From: a virus
Strand: one strand, 5' to 3'
DNA length: 64,000 bases
Virus record (IMG/VR): IMGVR_UViG_3300028535_000001
The notes beneath the pieces were generated by a model. The model was not told the origin of the DNA, searched no databases, and saw nothing but the letters and a program-made list of their open reading frames with translations. Numbering within the stretch: the stretch's first letter is position 1; each line of letters starts with the position of its first letter. Positions 7,125 to 50,247 of the stretch are shown here, piece after piece. Position numbers and translations under genes: made by a program.

Positions 7125-7745
7125 TTAAGATGTTGTAATAGTTGTTTTTGATGATCCTGTTACAGCAAAATCATATATTTTATAGTCAAACGTAACAGAC
7201 GCCGTTAAATAATCAACATCTGTTGCTTGTTGATTGTAAGGAAGACCAGTTAATGAAATAGGAAATACATCACTAAATCTAACTTCTACAACTGAATTGT
7301 TTTTATTTGATAGTACAGATAACGTAGCATCCGAAAAAAGACCACCTGTTTTTGGTGGTGCATATTTTGATCGGCCAGCGTCACCTAATATGTTTGATGT
7401 ACTACCAGGAAATCTAGTATTACCACTTTTTAAAAGATTTGCATGTTCTTTATGGTCACCTGGAAATCCTAAGCCTCTTAACCAACCATGTATCTCTCTA
7501 TAATTTTCTAAATTTTCATCAACTAAAAATGAAATAGAAAGTCTCTCGTAATTTAACTTGTCACCAGGTAAAGGTATATCTTTAAGTGGTGTTGGTTGTG
7601 TTTGAGTATCAGCCAATGCAATGCCAGGTATATTAGCTGAAGTACAAAAATATTCTACTTTAGGTAACTTCATTATGCTAAATTTAAATTGTGTTGGACT
7701 AGCGTAATCTAACTTCGTTGGTTGTCTATCCATTGCTGTTGTCAT
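7125..7745 (-). CDS. gp3: Tail completion / tube terminator protein (T4 gp3-like)
   Basis: SPTQFKF..KLPKVEYFC..ANIPGI, FLVDENLENY.EIH.W, FPISL motifs; position next to uvsY. Confidence 0.88.
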   Translation of the reverse strand: MTTAMDRQPTKLDYASPTQFKFSIMKLPKVEYFCTSANIPGIALADTQTQPTPLKDIPLPGDKLNYERLSISFLVDENLENYREIHGWLRGLGFPGDHKEHANLLKSGNTRFPGSTSNILGDAGRSKYAPPKTGGLFSDATLSVLSNKNNSVVEVRFSDVFPISLTGLPYNQQATDVDYLTASVTFDYKIYDFAVTGSSKTTITTS

Positions 7746-8048: not shown

Positions 8049-8474
8049 TTATTTTCTTTCCCATACTTTTAGCTTACCATCTTTATCAGCAAACACCATT
8101 TCTTGTTTATCTTCTTCTGGTTTATTAGTACGACAAGTATCCCAGCAAGCTTTAGGACCTCTATTTTGTTTTAGTTGGTCATAAAATTGTTTCCAAACAT
8201 TCGATTCAATTATATCATCTATACTTTTATAATCTTTTAGTTGGCTTGCGTCTATCATTTTTTTAAATTCTGGATCGGTCATATTTTCATTTGTATCACA
8301 TCTACAACATGGTATTAATTGACCTCTATTTGTAATAGCAAGATTCATATTACCCTTAATACACATAGGTTCTATTTTAGTATCTTCCTGGTTAGGAAAT
8401 TTATTTTCTTCACTTATTTTTCCATATTTATTATATTCTGTTACATGTGGAAAATTTAATTTAATCTCTGTCAT
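8049..8474 (-). CDS. Stand-alone SPASM/twitch-like Fe-S protein (copy 1)
   Basis: C...LAITNRGQLIPCCRCD ... W..F..QL ... CWDTC; overlaps the rSAM gene. Confidence 0.8.
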   Translation of the reverse strand: MTEIKLNFPHVTEYNKYGKISEENKFPNQEDTKIEPMCIKGNMNLAITNRGQLIPCCRCDTNENMTDPEFKKMIDASQLKDYKSIDDIIESNVWKQFYDQLKQNRGPKACWDTCRTNKPEEDKQEMVFADKDGKLKVWERK

Positions 8475-9372
8475 TTTTTCTTTTCTTTAAGTCGTCTCTT
8501 TTTATATGTTCGGGTAAACCTAAATAATTAGAGCCATCTTTTAATGTAGGGTGTTGATACCTTGAACCATCTGGATTCGCATTCATAATAACATCTGGTG
8601 CCGCCCCAACTAGATTATTGTCTTTAGGATCCCATGTTTCAGCATAGTCACCTCTTGACTCTGTTTTATTTTCAGGCATTAACCAATCATCTGGACCTAA
8701 CCATCTACCACTATTTATTAAATTAAAAACTATTCCATTATCTTCAGCCAGTTTAACACATTCTTTTATTGAATTTTGATTATATCTAAAAACTATCATT
8801 TGCCATATTGGTGTTTTTTTTAAATATTTTTTAGACATGATCGCTCTTTTAAAATGCAATTCACCATCTTGATGTACTCTATATTTGTGACTATCTTTAG
8901 GAAGACCATCTATACCAAACCACCATTGAGCTTCAGGATTTGTTTCCCATGCTTTGATAAAAAAACTATCTGGTTTATGTGTAGAGGCATTATGTACTTG
9001 ACTTATTTTCTTTCTATCATGTATCATTTTTAAGAAATCAATAAAGTGTGGGTGATGTATAGGATCAGAGTATTGACCACAAAATTGTATTCTGTCAAAG
9101 TAATCAAGAATCTTTTCAAATTCTTCTATTGTTATATCTCTACCTGGTACTCTTTTACCTTTATTTCTCCAATGCATTTGTCTTGAACATCTAGGACATT
9201 CTAATGGACATCTATGAGATAAATCTAAATTTACTTTACTTGCTGGAAATAGTTTAGATTCATAGCGATTGCTGAACCTCGGTCCCATACCTTTGATAAT
9301 ACTTGGTGCATATGATTTAAAACTGCCTTCTTTGGCAGGTTTATATTTCATATATTCTTTTTCATCAATCAT
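8461..9372 (-). CDS. Radical SAM protein lacking a C-terminal SPASM domain (copy 1)
   Basis: CPLECPRC (CX3CX2C), FCGQYSDP, DGLPKDSHKYR; paralogous to 36307 and 37532. Confidence 0.88.
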   Translation of the reverse strand: MIDEKEYMKYKPAKEGSFKSYAPSIIKGMGPRFSNRYESKLFPASKVNLDLSHRCPLECPRCSRQMHWRNKGKRVPGRDITIEEFEKILDYFDRIQFCGQYSDPIHHPHFIDFLKMIHDRKKISQVHNASTHKPDSFFIKAWETNPEAQWWFGIDGLPKDSHKYRVHQDGELHFKRAIMSKKYLKKTPIWQMIVFRYNQNSIKECVKLAEDNGIVFNLINSGRWLGPDDWLMPENKTESRGDYAETWDPKDNNLVGAAPDVIMNANPDGSRYQHPTLKDGSNYLGLPEHIKRDDLKKRKNDRD

Positions 9373-9545: not shown

Positions 9546-10880
9546 TTACATTATGTTTGATACTTTAACTTTTTGGTAATATCTGTTTGAGTTAGGTGTA
9601 CCAGAATCAGTGATTCCAGTTACAGCACCCGAAGCAGCACCAGTTTCCGCAAAAGGATTAGCAACTAGACCGTATCTAGTTTTAAATCCAATTTTTGGTT
9701 GGAAAGTATCTTGACCAACAGCACGAACCATTTGTAATGGAACATACGGACAATAGAACATACCAGCGTCATAAGGTGAAGTACCTTTGTAACCGACAAC
9801 GTAATATTGACTAGCGCTTGAGTTAGCACTATATGGATCAATGTACACTTTAAATCTACCGTTTAATACACCAGCGAATGTGCTACCAGTGTCGTCAACG
9901 TTTAGATTGTTGTTTAATGCAGGCGTGTAATCTAAAACACCAGCCATTTGAAGAGCACTAGCAACATCAGCAGAGCAGATAATCATATTACCTTTTCCAC
10001 GTCTTGTTCTTTGTGCGATTCTGTTTGCGTCTCTTTCCAATTGGAACATAAGACCTTTGAATCTTTCAACTGACCATCTACCGTTTGAGTCTGTATCTAA
10101 ATCAAATACACCAGCAGTAGTTGTGTTTGTAGCAGCGCCTTTTTCTGAATTGATATAAACAGCTCTTACAACTTCTCTGTTGATTTCCGCAAGGATTTCA
10201 GCAGATAGAATGTTTGCAAGTTCTGTTTCAGCGTCTAAGCCATGGATTGCTTTTAAATCTTGAGCAAGTTCCATAGTATATTCTGCTTTAAGAGCTCTAC
10301 TTCTCGCCGTCACTGTAGTTTTCTCAATTGAGAAAGCCATTTCAGCAAATGCGTTTGCAGTAGCGTCGCCTAATGCCTCAGCCGCAGCTGTAGTCATACC
10401 TTGACCTCTAGTATACTCGCCAGCCGGTGCGTCATTAAGAACAGAAGGATTAGTTCCTCTATGCTCAGTAACACCATCGTGAGTAACTGAATCGCCAGCA
10501 GCATTTCTAGATGAGTAATCAGTGTCAGCTTCGTCAAATAGTGCTTCACCACCAGTTGCAGAAGTATATCTTGATCTCATTGCGAAAATAAGTCCTGTTG
10601 GACCAGTCATTGGTTGAACACCAGCAATATCGTATGCGATAAGGTTTGGCATTGCTCTTCGTACTAATGAAATTAAAATTGGATCCCAATTTGAAGTTCC
10701 AGCAGTATTATTCGTAGGAGCAGCTTCACTTAAAAATGCGCTGTCCTCCTTCATAGCTCTTTCTTGGTTTTCCAAGATAGTAGCCGTAACGGCACGTTTG
10801 TAAGAGTCTCCGATTTTTGGTAAATCAGGGTGCTCTAACACAGGCTGCCATTTTTTTTCGTATTGTTCTGATAAATACAT
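9546..10880 (-). CDS. gp23: Major capsid protein
   Basis: DPILISLVRRAMPNLIAYDIAGVQPMTGPTGLIFAMR, SRALKAEYTMELAQDLKAIHG, FQPKIGFKTRYG. Confidence 0.99.
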   Translation of the reverse strand: MYLSEQYEKKWQPVLEHPDLPKIGDSYKRAVTATILENQERAMKEDSAFLSEAAPTNNTAGTSNWDPILISLVRRAMPNLIAYDIAGVQPMTGPTGLIFAMRSRYTSATGGEALFDEADTDYSSRNAAGDSVTHDGVTEHRGTNPSVLNDAPAGEYTRGQGMTTAAAEALGDATANAFAEMAFSIEKTTVTARSRALKAEYTMELAQDLKAIHGLDAETELANILSAEILAEINREVVRAVYINSEKGAATNTTTAGVFDLDTDSNGRWSVERFKGLMFQLERDANRIAQRTRRGKGNMIICSADVASALQMAGVLDYTPALNNNLNVDDTGSTFAGVLNGRFKVYIDPYSANSSASQYYVVGYKGTSPYDAGMFYCPYVPLQMVRAVGQDTFQPKIGFKTRYGLVANPFAETGAASGAVTGITDSGTPNSNRYYQKVKVSNIM

Positions 10881-35444: not shown

Positions 35445-36320
35445 ATGACCAGATTAAATATAATTGTCACAAGTAAACCTGGAGATGGACTATTACACTA
35501 TAGTTATGAACAATGTAGCTATTTAAAAAAACTAGGAATTGACGCAAGAGTTGTGGTAATACCACACCCAAAATATTCAGAAGAATCTTATATAACTGCA
35601 ATGTCAGAAAAGTATATAAATTATGAACCTATGTATTTTGATTATGAAGAAAATGAAAAAGAAGTCAATTTAATTATGGGTAGAAGTATGATAACTCTAG
35701 CATATAGGAGTATTAAAGATTACGATAAAGATACACAATTGACTTTACGTTTATTATTTAAACTACCTCTTATATCTGTTTATTCAGAAAACCACCCAAA
35801 AGATTATCCATTAGCATTAGAATTTTTTAAACCTAAAAAAATAATTGACTTATGCGATCACGAAGTTTATACCAATGGTGTAGGTAGACAATTTGAAAAA
35901 ATTATTAACTATAGTGTATATAAACCTATAGTAAAAGATGTCAAGTTTAAATATCTATTTTTAGGCACAAATGAAAGTTATTATACTGAAATAAAAAAAC
36001 ATATTCATAAGTATCAAAATCATGGTATCCTGGCATACAAAGATAAGTACATTGATTATAATTTAAATCACGTATTTGTACCTGTAAAAAATTTATTAGG
36101 TATGTTTGATACTTACGTTTATACTAAACATACTTTTGATCCGGCACCAAGATTAATGCAAGAGTGTCGTTTCTTTGGAATGAATTTTATATATGCAAGA
36201 GATAAAAATATTAAAGACGGAGGACCTGTTTACTATAAAAGGCCTGCTAACTGTCTTACTGATCCTGTTAATAAACCAAATATAGAAGTAATTATAAAGG
36301 CAATGAATGACCTATTTTAA
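35445..36320 (+). CDS. Putative GT-B-like glycosyltransferase
   Basis: C-terminal FDTYVY....DPAPRLMQECRFFG resembles the GT4 sugar-nucleotide-binding motif. Confidence 0.5.
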   Translation: MTRLNIIVTSKPGDGLLHYSYEQCSYLKKLGIDARVVVIPHPKYSEESYITAMSEKYINYEPMYFDYEENEKEVNLIMGRSMITLAYRSIKDYDKDTQLTLRLLFKLPLISVYSENHPKDYPLALEFFKPKKIIDLCDHEVYTNGVGRQFEKIINYSVYKPIVKDVKFKYLFLGTNESYYTEIKKHIHKYQNHGILAYKDKYIDYNLNHVFVPVKNLLGMFDTYVYTKHTFDPAPRLMQECRFFGMNFIYARDKNIKDGGPVYYKRPANCLTDPVNKPNIEVIIKAMNDLF

Positions 36321-36972
36321 AACTAGAACAACAATAAATGTAGACTCTTCTCATAGATGTCCTTTAGAATGTCCTAATTGCCAAAGACAAACTGCTTTTA
36401 CATTTAGAGGTAAAGTGGTTCATGGCCGTGATTTAAAAATGGATGAAATAGAAAAATTAGCAAAACATTTTAAGTCTTTTGATTTCTGTGGACAATTATC
36501 TGATCCAATACATCACCCTAAATTTCCTACAATATTAAATAGATTACATGAACTTGAAATACCGGAAGTTTTAGTACACAATGCCTCTACAGCAAAACCT
36601 ATGGCATGGTACATTAAATCTTGGAAAGCAAATCCAAATGCTTTGTGGACTTTTGCGTGTGACGGTTTACCTAAAGATAGTCACAAGTATAGGAAAAATC
36701 AAAACGGGGAAAAAATGTTTGAAATAATGAAAGAGTCAATTAAACATTTAAATACAATACCAATATGGCAGTTTATAATATTTAATTATAATGAAAATGA
36801 TATAGAAGAAGCTAAGATTATGGCTAATAGTAATGGAATAGATTTTCTGTTAACACAATCTTCCAGATGGAAAGATAGAGACGGAAAACCAGACCCATTG
36901 TTACCAACAGGAAAATATAAACCAGTATTAAAAAATAAATTACCAGGCAGGAGATTATATGAAGAATATTAA
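36307..36972 (+). CDS. Radical SAM protein without SPASM (copy 2)
   Basis: HRCPLECPNCQRQ, FCGQLSDP, DGLPKDSHKYR. Confidence 0.88.
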   Translation: MTYFKTRTTINVDSSHRCPLECPNCQRQTAFTFRGKVVHGRDLKMDEIEKLAKHFKSFDFCGQLSDPIHHPKFPTILNRLHELEIPEVLVHNASTAKPMAWYIKSWKANPNALWTFACDGLPKDSHKYRKNQNGEKMFEIMKESIKHLNTIPIWQFIIFNYNENDIEEAKIMANSNGIDFLLTQSSRWKDRDGKPDPLLPTGKYKPVLKNKLPGRRLYEEY

Positions 36973-37342
36973 ATTGAGACCTCGCTGTCTTCCTAATCCA
37001 GATGATCCAAATTATATAGAAATGCCTGTAGCAATAAACAATAGAGGTTATTTGTTACCTTGTTGTTGGTGTGATGAAAGAGTTGTGACTAATAGTGAAA
37101 AGTTTAAAAAAATATATGACGTAAGTAAACTTGAAAACTTTGATACAGTTAAACAATTGATGGATCAACCAGAATGGAAAGAATTTGAAAATGATTTAAT
37201 CAGAGCTAGAGACGTAGGAGATAATCTAGAAAAAATAAATGGTGTCTGTATTCATCACTGTAAAACAAGAGAAGAAGCAGATAAGATAAAAGTAGAAACA
37301 ACATTTAGAGACGGAAAAGAATTAAAGAAAGAAACGAAATAA
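36959..37342 (+). CDS. Stand-alone SPASM/twitch-like protein (copy 2)
   Basis: PRC...AINNRGYLLPCCWCD ... CIHHC. Confidence 0.8.
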   Translation: MKNIKLRPRCLPNPDDPNYIEMPVAINNRGYLLPCCWCDERVVTNSEKFKKIYDVSKLENFDTVKQLMDQPEWKEFENDLIRARDVGDNLEKINGVCIHHCKTREEADKIKVETTFRDGKELKKETK

Positions 37343-37527
37343 TGGTATTCAGTATTAGCAGTCATCAAATATATCGTTTTCCTTGTATAGGTGTTTGTAG
37401 TATTGATGTAAATAGTGGTTACTGTTTAGGTTGTAGTCGTACTGAAAAAGAAGTGTACAAATGGGAAGATACAAACACAACCGATGAATGGAAAAAGAAA
37501 AACGAAGAAGAATTAAAAAATAGATAA
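37342..37527 (+). CDS. DUF1289 (YdhL-like) predicted Fe-S protein
   Basis: PCIGVCSID...GYCLGCSRT..EV..W. Confidence 0.85.
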   Translation: MVFSISSHQIYRFPCIGVCSIDVNSGYCLGCSRTEKEVYKWEDTNTTDEWKKKNEEELKNR

Positions 37528-37531
37528 AATA

Positions 37532-38170
37532 ATGGAGAGATATTTTAAAAAAAGACGTAGGTTAAATTTAGATGTGACCCATAGATGTCCTCTTGAATGT
37601 CCTAACTGTCAAAGACAAACATCGTTTACCAATGATGGTTTGGTACCTCATGGACGTGATCTAACGTTAGATGAATTAGATATGATAGCAAAACATTTTA
37701 TAGATATTGGTTTTTGTGGACAGTTATCGGATCCAGTACATCACCCTAAATTTAATGAAATAATGAAAATGCTTAAAGATGTGCCAGAGGTTTTTGTTCA
37801 TAATGCAGCTACAGCTAAACCTATATCTTGGTATATTAAATCTTGGCAGGCAAATCCAAAAGCAGTTTGGATATTTGCTTGTGATGGTCTTCCTAAAGAC
37901 AGCCATAAATATAGGAAGAATCAAGATGGTATTAAAATGTTTGAGATAATGAAAGAGGCCAAAAAACACTTATTGAGTACACCAGTGTGGCAATATATTA
38001 GATTTAAATATAATGAAAACGATATTGAAACAGCAAAGAAAATGGCCGAAGATGAAGGATTAAGTTTTATACAAATAGAATCTTCAAGGTGGTTGGGTGA
38101 TGATGATCCTTTTAAACCTACAAACTCATTAAAATCAAAGGCGGCTGTTTATAAAGGTACAACTAAATGA
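37532..38170 (+). CDS. Radical SAM protein without SPASM (copy 3)
   Basis: HRCPLECPNCQRQ, FCGQLSDP, DGLPKDSHKYR. Confidence 0.88.
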   Translation: MERYFKKRRRLNLDVTHRCPLECPNCQRQTSFTNDGLVPHGRDLTLDELDMIAKHFIDIGFCGQLSDPVHHPKFNEIMKMLKDVPEVFVHNAATAKPISWYIKSWQANPKAVWIFACDGLPKDSHKYRKNQDGIKMFEIMKEAKKHLLSTPVWQYIRFKYNENDIETAKKMAEDEGLSFIQIESSRWLGDDDPFKPTNSLKSKAAVYKGTTK

Positions 38171-38541
38171 AATTAAAACCTAAATGTTTACCTGATCCAG
38201 ATAACAAAGACTTTCAACCTATGCCTTTGGCAATAGATAATAGAGGTCATTTAATACCTTGTTGTTGGTGCGATCACCCTAAAACAACAAAGGCTGAGTT
38301 ATATAAACCTCTTTATAAAGTTAGTAAGCTTAAAGATTATAATAGTATAGATGAAATACTTGATACAAAAGAATGGAAACAATTTGAAGATGATCTAGTC
38401 CAAGCTAGAGATATAGGAGACAACATAAATAGAATTAACCAAACTTGTCTCTTTCATTGTAAGGCAAGAAAGTCAGATGACAATATAAAAATTGAAACTT
38501 ATTATGAAAAAGGTAAAGAAGTAGCGAAGGATATTAAATAA
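38167..38541 (+). CDS. Stand-alone SPASM/twitch-like protein (copy 3)
   Basis: PKC...AIDNRGHLIPCCWCD ... CLFHC. Confidence 0.8.
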   Translation: MKLKPKCLPDPDNKDFQPMPLAIDNRGHLIPCCWCDHPKTTKAELYKPLYKVSKLKDYNSIDEILDTKEWKQFEDDLVQARDIGDNINRINQTCLFHCKARKSDDNIKIETYYEKGKEVAKDIK

Positions 38542-39593
38542 TGGACGCATGGCATAAAGAATATGAATGGAACAAAGATGAATATATTAAACTCTTTGAT
38601 GAAGCAATGCAAGAAAAACAGGAACAAAATATAGAGTTCCTAGAAAAAACAATAACAAACACAATTGGAAGAAAATATGCTGTTGCTTGTCAAAACGGTA
38701 CAGACGCCTTAATGTTTTCTTTAATAACATTAGGAATAAAACCAGGTGATGAAGTAATAACAACAAACTTTTCTTGGATATCAACAGCGTCTTGTATATC
38801 TATGGTAGGTGCTAAACCTGTGTTTTGTGATATTGATTTAAAAAACTATCATATGACATTAGATAGTATAAAAAGAATGTATCAACCTGAAGTAAAAGCA
38901 ATTGTTTATCCTCATTTATTTGGCAACATGTCTAATATAACAGATATATTAGAATTTTGTAAAGAGAAAAATATATTTTTTATTGAAGACGCAGCTCAAG
39001 CCATAGGATCAAGTATCAATGGTGTAAAAGCAGGTACACTAGGAGATTTCAGTACTATAAGTTTCAATGCAAACAAAACTATTGGTGGTATCGCTGGTGG
39101 AGGAGTTGTACTAACAGATAACAAAGAACATGCCGATACAATAATAAAATTAAGAAAACATGGTAACCACGAAATGTTAGGATACAATTCTAAAATGTTA
39201 TTTTTTAATGCCAAGTTTATTGATTATAGATTAAAAAAATTAAATGTATATGTAGAAAGAAAACAAATCGTAGCAAAACTATATGATAATCATTTACAAG
39301 ATTACGTACAGGTACAAAAAACTACAAATGGAGTTAATCATACTTATCACAAATATATTATAAGGTTTGAAGATAAAGAAACAAGAAATAGAGTAAAGAA
39401 AAGAATAAATGCAAATGTTCATTATGAAAAACCTCTTTCAGAAAGACCTATGTACAAGAGTATAGATCATAGAAGTGATAATTGTATTAATTGTAAAACA
39501 ACCGGTGATACAATTTTAACCTTACCAATTGACCCATACTTAACAAAAGAAGAAATAGATAAAACGTGTAATACAATATTAGCCTCATTATGA
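38541..39593 (+). CDS. DegT/DnrJ/EryC1/StrS PLP-dependent sugar aminotransferase
   Basis: NGTDAL, GIKPGDEVI, IEDAAQA.G, SFNANK (PLP lysine), GGGVV. Confidence 0.93.
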   Translation: MDAWHKEYEWNKDEYIKLFDEAMQEKQEQNIEFLEKTITNTIGRKYAVACQNGTDALMFSLITLGIKPGDEVITTNFSWISTASCISMVGAKPVFCDIDLKNYHMTLDSIKRMYQPEVKAIVYPHLFGNMSNITDILEFCKEKNIFFIEDAAQAIGSSINGVKAGTLGDFSTISFNANKTIGGIAGGGVVLTDNKEHADTIIKLRKHGNHEMLGYNSKMLFFNAKFIDYRLKKLNVYVERKQIVAKLYDNHLQDYVQVQKTTNGVNHTYHKYIIRFEDKETRNRVKKRINANVHYEKPLSERPMYKSIDHRSDNCINCKTTGDTILTLPIDPYLTKEEIDKTCNTILASL

Positions 39594-40901: not shown

Positions 40902-41792
40902 ATGTCTATAACTTATGATGATAAAGAAATTGAGTTTTTTAACTTTCCAATAAAGCAAGTCATACTAGCCTTATCAGGCGGAACGGATTCAGCTGCTATT
41001 CTTTATTTAATATGTAAAAAATTTCCAGAAATAGAAATTATACCATATAATTGTCAAGATGTTAATAATCCATATGACATACAGGCAGCCGAAAAAATTA
41101 TAGAAATTGTTAAAGGTAAGTTTCCTAATAATAATATTAGAGATTTGGTAAGAGGAACTTATAATGATGGTGACGATTCACTCTTTCCAGAGGCAATAGA
41201 AGCCATTAAAAGAAGGCCAGAATGGTCTACCGAACAAGATAAAGCAGATGGTACAAAGTCTGAACATTTAGCTTTATTAAAAAAATATTGTCCTAGTAGA
41301 CATACTTTAGAGTATTATATTGAATATTTTAACCGGAAGAATGTATTATTAACACTTACCATTTTAAATAGAGTGACAAAAACTTTATTTTTAAATAAAT
41401 TAAAAGATGAATTACGTGTCAAATATATTGATGGTCCGTTGGACAACAGGCTCCTGGTGGCTCCTGACTCATACCATGTAAATGGTATGACCAATAATCC
41501 ACCAATAGAAGTACAAAAAAAATATCCTGTAATGCTTCAATGGGCTGAAACAAGAAGAAACCCTAGTGATAAAATTAGAAACACAAGAGATTATAGGACG
41601 TATTATCCTTTTGCTAATGTTGATAAAAAGTTTATAGCAGCTATATTTAAGGATGAAAAATTAATGGAGACTATATTTCCTCTCACAAGATCATGTGTAG
41701 GTATAGCAGAATTAACTGATAACTATACGAAAGAATGCCACCAATGTTTTTGGTGTTATGAAAAAAAATGGGCGTTTGATTTAAAATGGTAA
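40902..41792 (+). CDS. QueC-like PP-loop ATPase (paralogue 1)
   Basis: LSGGTDSA PP-loop; C-terminal TRSC...CHQCFWCYEK Zn motif. Confidence 0.82.
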   Translation: MSITYDDKEIEFFNFPIKQVILALSGGTDSAAILYLICKKFPEIEIIPYNCQDVNNPYDIQAAEKIIEIVKGKFPNNNIRDLVRGTYNDGDDSLFPEAIEAIKRRPEWSTEQDKADGTKSEHLALLKKYCPSRHTLEYYIEYFNRKNVLLTLTILNRVTKTLFLNKLKDELRVKYIDGPLDNRLLVAPDSYHVNGMTNNPPIEVQKKYPVMLQWAETRRNPSDKIRNTRDYRTYYPFANVDKKFIAAIFKDEKLMETIFPLTRSCVGIAELTDNYTKECHQCFWCYEKKWAFDLKW

Positions 41793-42654: not shown

Positions 42655-43053
42655 ATGAATGAAACAGATGATCCAGATTTAAGAGTGCCTAAACCCGCTG
42701 TTGACGCACAACTTAATGCTACACTAGACGATATTACAGACCACCAAGAAACTCGTTTAGAGTATATTAATCATATTACAGAGAAACTTAAAACTTGTTA
42801 TGATCCTGAAATTGATACAGACATTTATACACTTGGACTTATATATGATGTTAAGGTTACCTCTGAAAGATACGTATTTGTATTAATGAGTTTAACGTCT
42901 GCTTTTTGTCCAGCAGTAGATGAAATAGTTAATGGAGTTAAAATGGCAGTTGATAGTATTCCAGGACTAAAATGTACTGTTAGAATTACAATGACACCTA
43001 TGTGGTCTAGAGATATGATTGATCCCGAAATAAGAGAAGTAATGGGACTGTAA
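42655..43053 (+). CDS. SufT/MIP18/PaaD-like (DUF59) Fe-S assembly protein
   Basis: LKTCYDPEI..DIYTLGLIY, MSLTSAFCP, PMWS.DMI. Confidence 0.92.
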   Translation: MNETDDPDLRVPKPAVDAQLNATLDDITDHQETRLEYINHITEKLKTCYDPEIDTDIYTLGLIYDVKVTSERYVFVLMSLTSAFCPAVDEIVNGVKMAVDSIPGLKCTVRITMTPMWSRDMIDPEIREVMGL

Positions 43054-43076: not shown

Positions 43077-44597
43077 ATGAAAATTTACGCTGTTGCTATA
43101 AACTTACACGACCATAACACCTATGACGGTGTTTATCATAATCAATTAGAAAGACACACAAGATTTAAACATAACTTACCATACAAAGCAGAAGCTTATA
43201 ATCATCAATCAGATATATTAAATCCTGGTGATTATACTTTAAATGATAAATTTGTAGCAGAGCATGTTAAAAAAGAACCTGATACACTTTTCGCATTTAC
43301 ATATACTTATGGTGGTATAAGAAAAGCAAAAAAAGAATTATGGAATACTATATTTAAAGGTCACGATGAAATTTTAGATTATGAAGTTAAAACATTATGG
43401 CAAAGACACTATAAAGATGGCATTTATTATATTGACCATCATCAATCACATGCCGCTTATGCATTTTTAAATTCAGGTTATAAACAAAGTGATATACTTG
43501 CAATAGATGGTATTGGCTCAAGATATAGATGTGTATTCTTTGACAGAGACGGCAACGCAACTGATTTATCATCAAAACTTCCTATTGGGTGGTTATGGAA
43601 TCATATGTCTAACTTGACAGGATTTGGAACATTAGGTGCAAGTAAACTTATGGGTAAAGTTGGTTATGGAAAACATAGTGACTATTACTATAATGTATTA
43701 TCTCAAATTTTAGAAGGACCTATATTAGAAAGAAAATATCCAGAATGGAAACAAATTAAAATTTCTACACATGGTATAGATGACCTAGCATACACACTAC
43801 AAGAAATTACAATGGAAAAAATTAAAGAACATATCTATCCATTAAAAACATCCGATAATCTTTGTCTTGCTGGTGGTGTTGCTTACAATGGTTATGTAAA
43901 TGAAATGTTTACCGAAAAATGGGATAATGTTTTTATTCCACCTGCAATTGGTGATGAAGGCCAAGCTATTGGTACTTATCAACATGCTGAATATACAATA
44001 AACAATAGAGTACACAAGTCTAACGTATATGCCGGCAAATCATACGAGTATATAGGCGAAAAAAAATTAACGTCTTATAAAGAAATAGCACAAGAAATCG
44101 CCGATGGTAAGATAGTAGGTTGGTTTCAAGGTAAATCAGAAAGTGGTAACAGAGCATTAGGTAATAGAAGTATATTAGCTGATCCTAGAAATCCAGAAAT
44201 AAAAGATATTATCAATAGTACAATAAAAATGAGAGAAGATTTTAGACCATTCGCTCCAGCAGTTTTAGAAGAACATTATAAAGAATATTTTGAGACAAAT
44301 AGTCCTAGTCCTTATATGTCAAGAATATGTAAAGTAAAAAAAGATAAAAAATCAGTAGTACCTGGAATTACTCACGTTGATGGTACTGCTAGAATACAGA
44401 CAGTTAACAAAGAAGATAATAATAAATTTTATGAACTTATACGAGAGTTTGGTGTTATCACTGGTGTTCCTATGTTGCTTAATACAAGTTTCAATTGTCA
44501 AGAGCCTATAGTAGAAACACCTCAAAATGCATTAAGAACTTTTAAAAGAACAGGATTAGATATATTAATTATTAATGATTATGTGGTAAGAAAATGA
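43077..44597 (+). CDS. NodU/CmcH-family carbamoyltransferase
   Basis: HHQSHAAYA, DGIG, KLMG, LAGGVAYN, RALGNRSILADPR, RPFAP, THVDGTARIQTV, LNTSFN. Confidence 0.95.
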   Translation: MKIYAVAINLHDHNTYDGVYHNQLERHTRFKHNLPYKAEAYNHQSDILNPGDYTLNDKFVAEHVKKEPDTLFAFTYTYGGIRKAKKELWNTIFKGHDEILDYEVKTLWQRHYKDGIYYIDHHQSHAAYAFLNSGYKQSDILAIDGIGSRYRCVFFDRDGNATDLSSKLPIGWLWNHMSNLTGFGTLGASKLMGKVGYGKHSDYYYNVLSQILEGPILERKYPEWKQIKISTHGIDDLAYTLQEITMEKIKEHIYPLKTSDNLCLAGGVAYNGYVNEMFTEKWDNVFIPPAIGDEGQAIGTYQHAEYTINNRVHKSNVYAGKSYEYIGEKKLTSYKEIAQEIADGKIVGWFQGKSESGNRALGNRSILADPRNPEIKDIINSTIKMREDFRPFAPAVLEEHYKEYFETNSPSPYMSRICKVKKDKKSVVPGITHVDGTARIQTVNKEDNNKFYELIREFGVITGVPMLLNTSFNCQEPIVETPQNALRTFKRTGLDILIINDYVVRK

Positions 44598-45400
44598 TTT
44601 ATAAAAATAAATTTGGTGAAATTGATATATTAAATTCAAAATATAATTTTAATAATAAAACTATAGCCATATCTATGTCTGGCGGATGTGATAGCACTAT
44701 GTTATGTTATTTGCTTGCAAAAACTATACAAAAGGAAAAATTAAATATTATTATACAACCATATAATGGTTACGATATTGATATACCACACGATTCTGAA
44801 AATGTGCCAAACATTATAAAATATATGCAAAATAAATTTCCAGGTGTAATAAGATGGCCAATAGGGGTGGTTTATAAAACTTTAAGTAATGAAAAAACTG
44901 TTCTAGGTACAGGTACAGGAGATAGTATAGTATTTGAAGATGAGATAATTAGACAAGATTTGCCATTTAAAGGAAATAAAATTCTTTTTGAATCAGATAA
45001 AGATAAAAATAATTGGATCCGCCCATTAAGAGATTTAATTGAAAAAAAAGTAGTTGATAATATAGTAATTGTAGCACTTTCACAAGGTCCTCCTTTAAAA
45101 GTACAACTAGATATGATAAAAAAATACAATATGGTAGGTCCAAAATTAATACAAAGAATAGAAGGATATTTAGATAAAGAAGATTTAAATGAAATCCAAC
45201 AATTGAAGCAGAGCTCTAATCTTGTAAATAATGCACCATTTAAATTTATTGATAAACGATTTATAATACAATGTTATAAAGATTTTAAAATGATGGATGT
45301 TTTAAATGAAATGACCGAATCGTGTACAAAACCTGGTGGAAAATGTGGAACCTGTTGGTGGTGTAGAGAAAGAGAATGGGCAATGGAAGAAGTATGTTAG
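44594..45400 (+). CDS. QueC-like PP-loop ATPase (paralogue 2)
   Basis: SMSGGCDST; TESC...CGTCWWCRER. Confidence 0.82.
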   Translation: MIYKNKFGEIDILNSKYNFNNKTIAISMSGGCDSTMLCYLLAKTIQKEKLNIIIQPYNGYDIDIPHDSENVPNIIKYMQNKFPGVIRWPIGVVYKTLSNEKTVLGTGTGDSIVFEDEIIRQDLPFKGNKILFESDKDKNNWIRPLRDLIEKKVVDNIVIVALSQGPPLKVQLDMIKKYNMVGPKLIQRIEGYLDKEDLNEIQQLKQSSNLVNNAPFKFIDKRFIIQCYKDFKMMDVLNEMTESCTKPGGKCGTCWWCREREWAMEEVC

Positions 45401-49014: not shown

Positions 49015-49770
49015 ATGAAGCTAACATACGGCGAACAGACAATAGACTTATTTGGAGAAGACATTTTTCCAGATGGACCCCCAGAAAAGGTTGTAATCTC
49101 ATTATCAGGAGGTTGTGACTCATCATCACTTACATATTTAATTGGAACTAATTTTCCAAATATTCAAATGTATCCTTTTCATTCAAAAGATGAAGACTGC
49201 ACTATAGATACTGAACGTGCTATAGAAGTACATAAATTTTTACAAGACAAATTTCCTACAGTTAATGATTTAGAAGTCTTTAATGTAAGAACAAGTGATC
49301 CTAGTTGGCAAAAAAAGGCCAAAGAAGCAATGGCTAATCCAAAAAATAGTCCTACAGTAAATGGTAAAAAAGTTTCTATGTGGGGATCATTAAACGGTTG
49401 TTCAAAAGCTCTACAAAACAGAAACGTAAGATCAATTATGTCAACAAGATATTCAGCACCTGTTGTTATGGCCATGACTTCTAATCCTCCAGTAGATGTA
49501 CAAAAAGAAAGAGGATTTTATGATGTAGCAGAAAGAAAAAGGGATCCAGGCGACAGTAATTTAAAAATGATGGATATAATGCCAGCTGGTGGTAAAACAT
49601 ATCAACCATATCTAAAAGTTAATAAAAAGTTTGTAGCAGGTATCTTTAAAGAAAATAATTTAATGGAAACTTTATTTCCAAAAACTAAATCATGTGCTTG
49701 GTCAAAAACACTTGAAATATGTGGTAAATGTTTTTGGTGTAATGAAAAAGCTTGGGCATTTGAGGATTAG
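49015..49770 (+). CDS. QueC-like PP-loop ATPase (paralogue 3)
   Basis: SLSGGCDSS; TKSC...CGKCFWCNEK. Confidence 0.82.
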   Translation: MKLTYGEQTIDLFGEDIFPDGPPEKVVISLSGGCDSSSLTYLIGTNFPNIQMYPFHSKDEDCTIDTERAIEVHKFLQDKFPTVNDLEVFNVRTSDPSWQKKAKEAMANPKNSPTVNGKKVSMWGSLNGCSKALQNRNVRSIMSTRYSAPVVMAMTSNPPVDVQKERGFYDVAERKRDPGDSNLKMMDIMPAGGKTYQPYLKVNKKFVAGIFKENNLMETLFPKTKSCAWSKTLEICGKCFWCNEKAWAFED

Positions 49771-49779
49771 ACGTACATT

Positions 49780-50247
49780 ATGGTTGCTACAATACGATAC
49801 ATAAATGTCAATCCTGATGGTGGCGTACCAAAGCGTCATGTCACTACAGCTAATATAGAAAAATTAGGTCTTAAAGAAGATAAACAAAATTCTCATGGAG
49901 GACTTAATCGTGCTGTTTTATTATATGATAATCAAAAAATTATCAAATTACAGGCAGACGGACACCCTATTGCTCCTGGAACAGCCGGAGAAAATATAAC
50001 TATAGATTTTTGGAGAGAAGGATTATCATATGATAATTTTAAAAAAGGAGATATAGTTAAAGTAGGAAAAACAATACTTGAATTAACTTTTACAGCACCA
50101 CCATGTAAAGGAATTGGTAAGTCATTTTTAAATGGCAACTGCAAATTAGTAGATGAAAAAGTTAATCCAACATATGGCAGATGGTGTGCCAAAGTTTTAA
50201 AAGAAGGCCAAATAAGTATAGGAGATGTAATAGAGATTGATACATAA
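49780..50247 (+). CDS. MOSC-domain protein (YiiM-like)
   Basis: GGVPK, D.Q..HGG.NRAV, PG..GENIT, PPC, VLKEG.I..GD. Confidence 0.9.
   Translation: MVATIRYINVNPDGGVPKRHVTTANIEKLGLKEDKQNSHGGLNRAVLLYDNQKIIKLQADGHPIAPGTAGENITIDFWREGLSYDNFKKGDIVKVGKTILELTFTAPPCKGIGKSFLNGNCKLVDEKVNPTYGRWCAKVLKEGQISIGDVIEIDT

Follow-up and report, generated by a model that had tools for sequence, protein, structure and literature searches.

SPASM/twitch enzymes account for about 165,000 of the 570,000 sequences of the radical S-adenosylmethionine (SAM) superfamily (PMC9012708). The twitch layout, as seen in SkfB, BtrN and MoaA, runs from a Cys through a beta-hairpin, a Gly and a second Cys to helix alpha2' and two further Cys, and the SPASM motif (CX9-15GX4C-gap-CX2CX5CX3C-gap-C) holds two auxiliary clusters (PMC6231123). 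Here we describe, in a 64,000-nucleotide (nt) stretch of viral DNA (IMG/VR record IMGVR_UViG_3300028535_000001; hereafter the window, meaning this whole stretch), three gene pairs that each encode a radical SAM core of ~210 amino acids (aa) and a Cys-rich protein of ~125 aa. At a probability of roughly 80%, we conclude that each pair makes up the two subunits of one radical SAM enzyme whose twitch domain is a separate polypeptide.

Like the twitch enzymes BtrN, MoaA, SkfB and BlsE (PDB 7vob), the pairs would combine a partial TIM-barrel core with one accessory Fe-S domain, and the accessory part follows the same Cys/beta-hairpin/Gly/Cys/helix/two-Cys layout, with its first strand predicted here to lie beside core strand beta1. 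They depart from these enzymes in that the twitch domain has its own gene, in an extra invariant Cys within the GGE-like motif of the core, and in sequence, with identities to solved enzymes of only 12-18%; where BtrN has CxxC, the small subunit of the pairs has a conserved CC pair and CxxxC. With the SPASM enzymes (anSME, PqqE, SuiB, CteB) the pairs share a CX(12-19)GX4C start and matches of the small proteins to the Pfam SPASM profile (PF13186; 40 of 51 small-family members at E <= 0.1, the best at 2.7e-6), but the CX2CX5CX3C block, the final Cys and a peptide-recognition domain are absent, and the domain is again unfused.

Two further comparisons bear on where an accessory domain may sit. 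The NCBIfam family NF033640 (N_Twi_rSAM) shows, as do some relatives of the pairs, that a twitch domain can lie on the other side of the core, but its members are single polypeptides; no window protein matched it at E <= 1, and relatives matched it weakly, far under its cut-off of 170 bits (35.8 bits for P0085, a fused metagenomic protein, and E 0.0026 to the N-terminal twitch part for the small protein of viral locus L072). Among enzymes of this class, PqqD offers the nearest parallel to an accessory domain that can be detached: some systems have it fused, others encode it as a small protein of its own (PMC6231123). Unlike the detached part of the pairs, which would be an Fe-S domain completing the active site, PqqD binds a peptide and carries no metal cluster. 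Besides Pelagibacter phage Mosig, the only match in the phage collection was gp083 of Campylobacter phage CP220 (YP_009169217; 25-28% identity over the core), which ends in a comparable C...G.ILPC...CxxCCxxC tail but joins both parts in one 326-aa chain and keeps a canonical GEP motif. In CP220 (our locus L002, 70.7-77.7 kb) gp083 is one of five radical SAM genes, found together with an amidinotransferase gene and a sugar-transferase-like gene. We found no description of a stand-alone SPASM/twitch subunit or of a split radical SAM enzyme in the open-access literature.

The split between core and small genes

The window, at ~30% G+C, is a segment of a T4-like myophage genome, and within the phage collection Mosig EXVC030M alone matched its DNA to any substantial extent (69% identity across 60% of the region); its source is a marine T4-like pelagimyophage, that is, a SAR11 phage, nearest to Mosig. 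Pairs A and B lie in succession on the plus strand with a DUF1289 gene between them, and pair C, on the minus strand, was recovered by tblastn of the pair proteins against the window (E 1e-58 to 1e-64 for coreC against coreA and coreB). In all three pairs the twitch-type domain, which in the SPASM/twitch class is a C-terminal extension of the same chain, is a separate gene that begins within the end of the core gene (Table 1). An earlier sequence-only reading of this DNA had proposed just such a layout, with two consecutive pairs joined by overlaps of 14 nt and 4 nt, an intervening DUF1289 gene and a third split copy, and we recovered each of these elements, the third copy being pair C. CoreA and coreB are 64% identical and smallA and smallB 49%, both far above chance, with pair C the outlier in both comparisons; homology in coreC begins near residue 40 and is followed by a C-terminal tail of ~70 aa, which, together with an N-terminal extension of ~35 aa in smallC, is absent from pairs A and B.

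Surveys beyond the window revealed that the two parts are nearly always encoded apart. A small-protein profile scanned with HMMER against 1.84 billion representative proteins matched 274 clusters, and 145 of the best 150 of these are stand-alone proteins of 58-182 aa. On the core side, the best 120 of 499 coreB relatives are almost all 201-232 aa long, and a word-index search found no relatives of 372 aa or more, a range above that of the fused forms (~314-349 aa). We located 475 loci encoding the core in IMG/VR with a core alignment, and surveyed the junctions of 125 unfused cores from 91 sources (79 related viral loci, further loci and the window). For 98 of these cores the small gene overlaps the core stop by 4-32 nt, with 4, 8, 11, 14, 17, 20 and 23 nt among the 11 lengths seen in these independent assemblies, and none of the overlaps keeps the frame (+1 frame in 78, +2 frame in 20).

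Gene order varies as well. Ten loci, L072, L066, L068 and L080 among them, have the small gene ahead of the core, and in L072 (2622-3642) it ends 1 nt before the core start. In L016 (2995-4748) and L019, a gene for a QueC-like PP-loop protein (261 aa) lies between the small gene and a coreB orthologue (85-88% identical to coreB), which shows that the junction tolerates inserts and ties the QueC-like paralogues to the module. Some contigs carry three consecutive pairs. The cultured phage Mosig has the same split, with separate annotations for the two parts (Mosig_00084, 211 aa; Mosig_00085, 112 aa), and in G001, the nearest relative, in which 42% of the 31-letter words sampled from the window recur, all three pairs are again encoded in separate frames.

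Fused forms are nonetheless part of the family. Three of the 150 representative clusters join core and small parts in one chain, namely P0100 (314 aa, present on five independent contigs, Tara samples included), P0027 (349 aa) and P0096 (343 aa), and in P0085 (335 aa) the small part precedes the core within the fusion. The sequence-only reading had held that a single fused frame among relatives would count against a genuine split; such frames do exist, yet what they confirm is the homology of the two-gene and one-gene forms, and they do not make the split an error. The small-subunit domain also occurs in P0120 (352 aa, metagenomic), where it lies N-terminal to an unrelated domain of ~240 aa and no radical SAM core is present.

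These junctions allow two simpler accounts to be weighed against a two-subunit enzyme. The first, that the pairs are frameshifted or pseudogenised copies of a fused radical SAM-SPASM gene or assembly errors, draws on the existence of P0100, P0027 and P0096 and on the fact that a small gene overlapping the core stop is the expected outcome of a single indel. We consider it scarcely credible, as one event of that kind would have to recur with 11 overlap lengths in independent assemblies, to spare an ATG for each small gene (preceded in smallA by an AGGAG Shine-Dalgarno sequence located 6 nt ahead), to leave both parts conserved across more than 50% sequence divergence, and to have struck cultured Mosig too, while the intact fused form survived in so few clusters. 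The second account, in which programmed ribosomal frameshifting yields one fused protein and hence an ordinary C-terminal twitch enzyme, fits the overlaps in being short and universal in the core-then-small arrangement, and an A-rich run (AGAAAAAATG) does lie at the coreC/smallC junction. A -1 slip at that run, however, leads straight into TGA, no single slip direction serves both the 78 pairs in the +1 frame and the 20 in the +2 frame, and the overlaps resemble ordinary termination-reinitiation coupling, making this account very improbable. Neither account explains loci in which the genes are reversed or separated by a third gene, and this applies to sequencing frameshifts, pseudogenes and programmed frameshifting alike.

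The sequence-only reading had judged a sequencing frameshift unlikely, and its wider proposal was a radical SAM family of two polypeptides, one of them a SPASM/twitch-type subunit standing alone; the first judgement is borne out by the junction lengths, the reversed order, the inserted gene and Mosig, and the second gains support from the junctions, gene orders, fused relatives and the predicted docking described below. The split is the usual form of the family in hundreds of ocean phages, with translation of the small subunit probably coupled to that of the core by the overlap of stop and start codons. A cellular scan with the same motifs gave 5 matches in 185,579 species genomes versus the 475 loci in IMG/VR, and the family appears almost confined to marine T4-like phages. 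The five cellular matches (L091-L095), one of them 174 kb long, are contigs of metagenome-assembled genomes assigned to Planctomycetota, Verrucomicrobiales, Hyphomicrobiales, Gammaproteobacteria and Balneola, and are probably mis-binned phage DNA.

Cluster motifs and predicted docking of the two subunits

The core carries the hallmarks of a radical SAM domain in altered form. CoreA matches Pfam Radical_SAM (PF04055) at E 1.3e-5, below the gathering cut-off, and PHROG 21308 ("radical SAM domain") at E 2.7e-19, and some relatives carry PF04055. Near the N-terminus, the CxxxCxxC cluster motif reads CPLECPNC in coreA and coreB and CPLECPRC in coreC, and across relatives two of its Cys are invariant and the third is at least 90% conserved. 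Two features had already been singled out from the sequence, the missing aromatic residue before the last Cys and the replacement of GGEP by FCGQLSDP, and both stand: the usual aromatic position is occupied by N or R, and FCGQLSDP, which is invariant in the family, aligns with the MVGSVGEP (GGE-type GSVGEP) of the fused protein CP220 gp083, D replacing E. On this alignment FCGQLSDP is a variant GGE-type SAM-binding motif following strand beta2. The core would thus form a partial TIM barrel that binds the SAM-cleaving [4Fe-4S] cluster through CxxxCxxC and SAM through the GGE-like GQLSDP motif. Current profiles miss both halves of the enzyme, so that cores are annotated as "MoaA-like" or hypothetical and small proteins as hypothetical.

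As to the small protein, sequence comparisons indicate that it is a detached twitch-type (half-SPASM) domain. Pfam SPASM was matched, below its gathering cut-off, by smallC at E 0.0018 over profile positions 1-66 of 67 and by smallB at E 0.031, and not by smallA in the Pfam scan; no other Pfam family recurs in more than three of the 51 small-family members, and the ESM Atlas neighbours of the small protein are viral SPASM clusters of ~110 aa. Small-family sequences compared with PDB chains gave matches at chance level only. Its predicted secondary structure passes from a hairpin through helices to CxxxC, which in smallB corresponds to C7, strands 19-23 and 28-31 around G27, C32/C33, helices and C94-x3-C98. 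Across 150 representative clusters C7, G27, P31, C32, C33, D36, W70, C94 and C98 are near-invariant (C7 in 135 of 135, G27 in 124 of 143, C32 in 141 of 143, C94 in 128 of 130 and C98 in 129 of 130), with C35 kept in only half. In a joint alignment the small proteins are colinear with residues ~212-314 of the fused relatives P0100, P0027 and P0096, all five Cys being in register, and the cores align to residues 1-205 of P0100.

The seven-Cys SPASM motif is thereby reduced to C-x12..19-G-x4-C and a later CxxxC, five conserved Cys in all, and with neither the CX2CX5CX3C block nor the last Cys present, a second auxiliary cluster in the small subunit is unlikely on sequence grounds. The initial label of "SPASM/twitch" is therefore apt in its twitch half, and the full-SPASM half has to be dropped, as the protein shows no more of the SPASM Cys pattern than its first half, plus CxxxC. 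One auxiliary Fe-S cluster would be carried by the small subunit on C7, C32/C33, C94 and C98 (smallB numbering).

Structure prediction places the two parts together. We modelled the fused relative P0100 (predicted local distance difference test, pLDDT, 89; predicted template modelling score, pTM, 0.68), and it is in this 41%-identical relative, not in a window protein, that the partial (beta/alpha)6 TIM-barrel fold was seen. Foldseek returned BlsE (7vob, E 2e-8), SuiB, anSME, MoaA and SkfB as its top matches, and VIA-align scored MoaA (Z 14.5; root-mean-square deviation, rmsd, 3.3 over 194 residues), BlsE (Z 14.3; rmsd 3.0 over 180 residues) and viperin (Z 14.2), scores for MoaA and BlsE that are tied with those of many other radical SAM cores (Z about 14). 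A coreB-smallB complex, predicted from family alignments for both chains, reached an interface score (ipSAE) of 0.92 in each of three runs, compared with 0.00 for the best of three controls; as a reference, 58 of 80 solved complexes attain that ipSAE mark, as do 2 of 110 mismatched pairs. The three runs shared at least 84% of contacts with a partner pLDDT of at least 87.

The lowest-error contacts join core residues 10-16 (strand beta1) to small residues 20-25, and the predicted interface also takes in core residues 62-66 and small residues 7-9, 31-33 and 96. In SkfB, strand beta1' adjoins core beta1 (PMC6231123), and the predicted docking site, with beta1' beside beta1, supports the place occupied by fused twitch domains as that of the free subunit, so that the small subunit would dock by its first beta-strand next to core strand beta1 as fused twitch domains do. 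Twitch modules occur in four positions, being C-terminal (the classic form, P0100), N-terminal (NF033640, P0085), encoded by a downstream gene and encoded by an upstream gene, and docking at the N-terminal edge of the core would account for the tolerance of all four.

Several points weigh against a two-subunit enzyme with a twitch-type small part. The window proteins fall under the Pfam gathering cut-offs, both for Radical_SAM (25.9, 18.3 and 19.8 bits for the three cores, against 29.5) and for SPASM (15.0 bits for smallB and 18.9 for smallC, against 21.5). Modelled alone from 8 sequences, smallB gave a poor structure (pLDDT 55). VIA-align covered mainly the core of the P0100 model (residues 1-201) and left its C-terminal part mostly unaligned, and because of this the twitch fold of the small part is based on sequence profiles, predicted secondary structure and long Foldseek alignments, without a clean superposition. 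The docking result may partly reflect likeness to solved fused structures, the two chains being halves of a split domain enzyme. The five Cys of the small subunit and the invariant Cys of the core FCGQLSDP exceed what one [4Fe-4S] cluster would seem to need, and the surplus thiols may link the subunits, hold a second metal site or take part in catalysis; cluster binding, heterodimer formation and activity are all predictions.

Co-divergence of cores and small subunits

Cores and small subunits have diverged in step. Among 69 distinct core/small pairs, core-core and small-small distances were correlated at a Mantel r of 0.91 (maximum of 500 permutations, 0.06), and the two clusterings were identical at five clusters (adjusted Rand index, ARI, 1.0), with ARI values of 0.67-0.85 at finer cuts; we saw no shuffling of partners at clade level in this set. 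The window repeats the pattern, its paralogues having the same order for cores and small proteins, A and B close and C distant. The pairs accordingly duplicated as units and diverged together, and each core would have its own cognate small subunit.

Such a history sits poorly with one proposal of the sequence-only reading, which saw the small proteins as interchangeable auxiliary-cluster subunits that might set specificity. If they were shared Fe-S subunits, with any small protein serving any core and tuning its specificity, one could expect the few loci in which a core has no small gene next to it or two small genes follow one another (Css, CssC, sCCss, where C is a core and s a small gene), and the docking surface, formed by core beta1 and the FCGQ motif, is indeed highly conserved. 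The distance correlation, the coinciding clades and the common order of paralogues in the window nevertheless argue against small subunits having been freely exchanged in the course of evolution, and we regard sharing as quite unlikely. A caution applies to cognate pairing itself: as adjacent genes share history, linkage alone could give the same pattern, and co-divergence does not prove specificity.

Genomic context and possible function

The pairs of the plus strand stand in an island of sugar and radical SAM genes (Table 1). In the window this island comprises a fusion of two glycosyltransferase (GT) domains (GT4-GT2), a GT2-methyltransferase, a B12-type radical SAM protein, an Asp/Arg hydroxylase, pairs A and B, a DegT aminotransferase, a GDSL-like protein, three QueC-like PP-loop proteins, two more radical SAM proteins, a SufT-like Fe-S assembly protein, a carbamoyltransferase, a GT8 and a MOSC protein. 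This large, variable island is the one that Zaragoza-Solas et al. termed the host recognition cluster of pelagimyophages and described as having radical SAM cassettes (PMC7029224). Pair C lies far from the island, directly after the major capsid gene and next to a tail-tube-like gene.

Table 1. Positions in the window of the three core/small pairs and of genes discussed in the text.
Feature	Position	Strand	Description
coreA	36307-36972	+	Radical SAM core subunit, 221 aa; C18-x3-C22-x2-C25, FC61GQLSDP
smallA	36959-37342	+	Stand-alone twitch-type Fe-S subunit (putative), 127 aa; 14-nt overlap with coreA stop, in another frame
DUF1289 gene	37342-37527	+	Small Cys-rich protein, 61 aa, between pairs A and B
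coreB	37532-38170	+	Radical SAM core subunit, 212 aa
smallB	38167-38541	+	Stand-alone twitch-type Fe-S subunit (putative), 124 aa; 4-nt overlap (ATGA) with coreB
DegT/DnrJ/EryC1-family sugar aminotransferase	38541-39593	+	Directly 3' of smallB; Pfam PF01041, E 1.6e-78
Upstream neighbour	35445-36320	+	291 aa; no Pfam match; ESM Atlas neighbours Glycos_transf_1, score 0.91
coreC	8461-9372	-	Third core, 303 aa counted from the first ATG
smallC	8049-8474	-	Third small subunit, 141 aa; 14-nt overlap with coreC; canonical C-x12-G-x4-C spacing
Major capsid gene	9546-10880		Flanks pair C
Tail-tube-like gene	7125-7745		Flanks pair C; weak, Pfam E 0.0028, below cut-off
QueC-like PP-loop paralogues	40902-41792, 44594-45400, 49015-49770		Three divergent copies; Pfam QueC, E 5e-6 to 8e-5
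SufT-like protein	42655-43053		PF01883, E 2e-12
MOSC-domain protein	49780-50247		E 5e-14

The gene between pairs A and B is not part of this module, having no homologue in any of 79 related phage loci. Its product matches PF06945 at E 7e-14 (51.9 bits, above the cut-off of 27), and in G001 the gene is missing and the counterparts of smallA and coreB abut, so that from these comparisons it looks like a recent single-gene insert at a gene junction, peculiar to this phage. We rejected a role for the DUF1289 protein as a dedicated partner of the pairs on the same count.

Other neighbours are constant. Within 3 kb on each side of the pairs in the 79 loci, a DegT homologue was present in 62, a homologue of the 291-aa upstream protein also in 62, and a GDSL-like protein in 55; the 291-aa protein is probably a GT4-like glycosyltransferase, an assignment that we treat as a lead. 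A GT4-like gene, one to three pairs and a DegT aminotransferase gene would thus form a conserved sugar-tailoring module within the host-recognition island. Among the further genes of the island, the three QueC-like paralogues are divergent, no other gene of the 7-deazaguanine pathway was found among the window proteins scanned, and these paralogues may use sugar carboxylates rather than preQ0. The SufT-like and MOSC-domain genes sit among the radical SAM genes, which suggests that the phage supports its own Fe-S demand.

The steady link with DegT, along with BlsE as the nearest solved structure, suggests a reaction. BtrN and BlsE act on sugar-like substrates and adjoin an aminotransferase step. 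The likeliest chemistry, which we hold tentatively and at clearly less than even odds, is that the pairs oxidise or dehydrate a sugar or nucleotide-sugar by a radical mechanism and so supply DegT with a keto intermediate for amination. The electron would pass to the auxiliary cluster, on the model of BtrN or of BlsE with its subsequent aminotransferase. Two points count against a sugar substrate, namely that the suggestion is drawn from gene neighbourhood only and that pair C adjoins the capsid gene, apart from the sugar genes.

The modified molecule could instead be a protein or peptide, with tail fibres, the capsid and envelope proteins of the host as candidates; the chemistry could then be formylglycine formation, epimerisation or cross-linking, in line with most SPASM/twitch enzymes (anSME, SuiB, SkfB). 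That pair C directly follows the major capsid gene would suit such a role, as would the position of SuiB and anSME just behind BlsE among the Foldseek matches and an island that adjoins fibre genes and includes protein-modifying enzymes of the Asp/Arg beta-hydroxylase type. The pairs, however, have a minimal core of ~200 aa and neither a RiPP recognition element (RRE) nor a peptide-binding domain, no small precursor-like open reading frame travels with them, and their constant companions are the DegT sugar aminotransferase and glycosyltransferase-like genes. We therefore find a protein substrate a serious alternative but a rather unlikely one, less probable than the sugar chemistry outlined above.

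A bolder variant of the two-subunit enzyme, which we think improbable, starts at the interface. The auxiliary cluster, or a joint second small cluster, might be built between the subunits, ligated together by the FCGQLSDP Cys of the core and Cys of the small subunit, such that cluster assembly glues the heterodimer and the free small subunit is a loadable, exchangeable Fe-S cartridge, all in the service of an undescribed sugar chemistry making the surface glycans that SAR11 phages use to recognise or remodel their hosts. If true, an interface-built cluster would be a new way to build a radical SAM active site.

What auxiliary clusters do in SPASM/twitch enzymes is still debated, partly because, with the clusters in a single chain, it is difficult to examine them one by one. 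A natural two-polypeptide form would allow each cluster to be separately loaded, isotope-labelled and mutated, and would reveal what the twitch domain contributes to SAM cleavage and to substrate binding. For the phages themselves, two or three pairs per genome in the host-recognition island of SAR11 phages suggest a product that may bear on host recognition or superinfection exclusion, and SAR11 and its phages are among the most abundant virus-host systems of the ocean.

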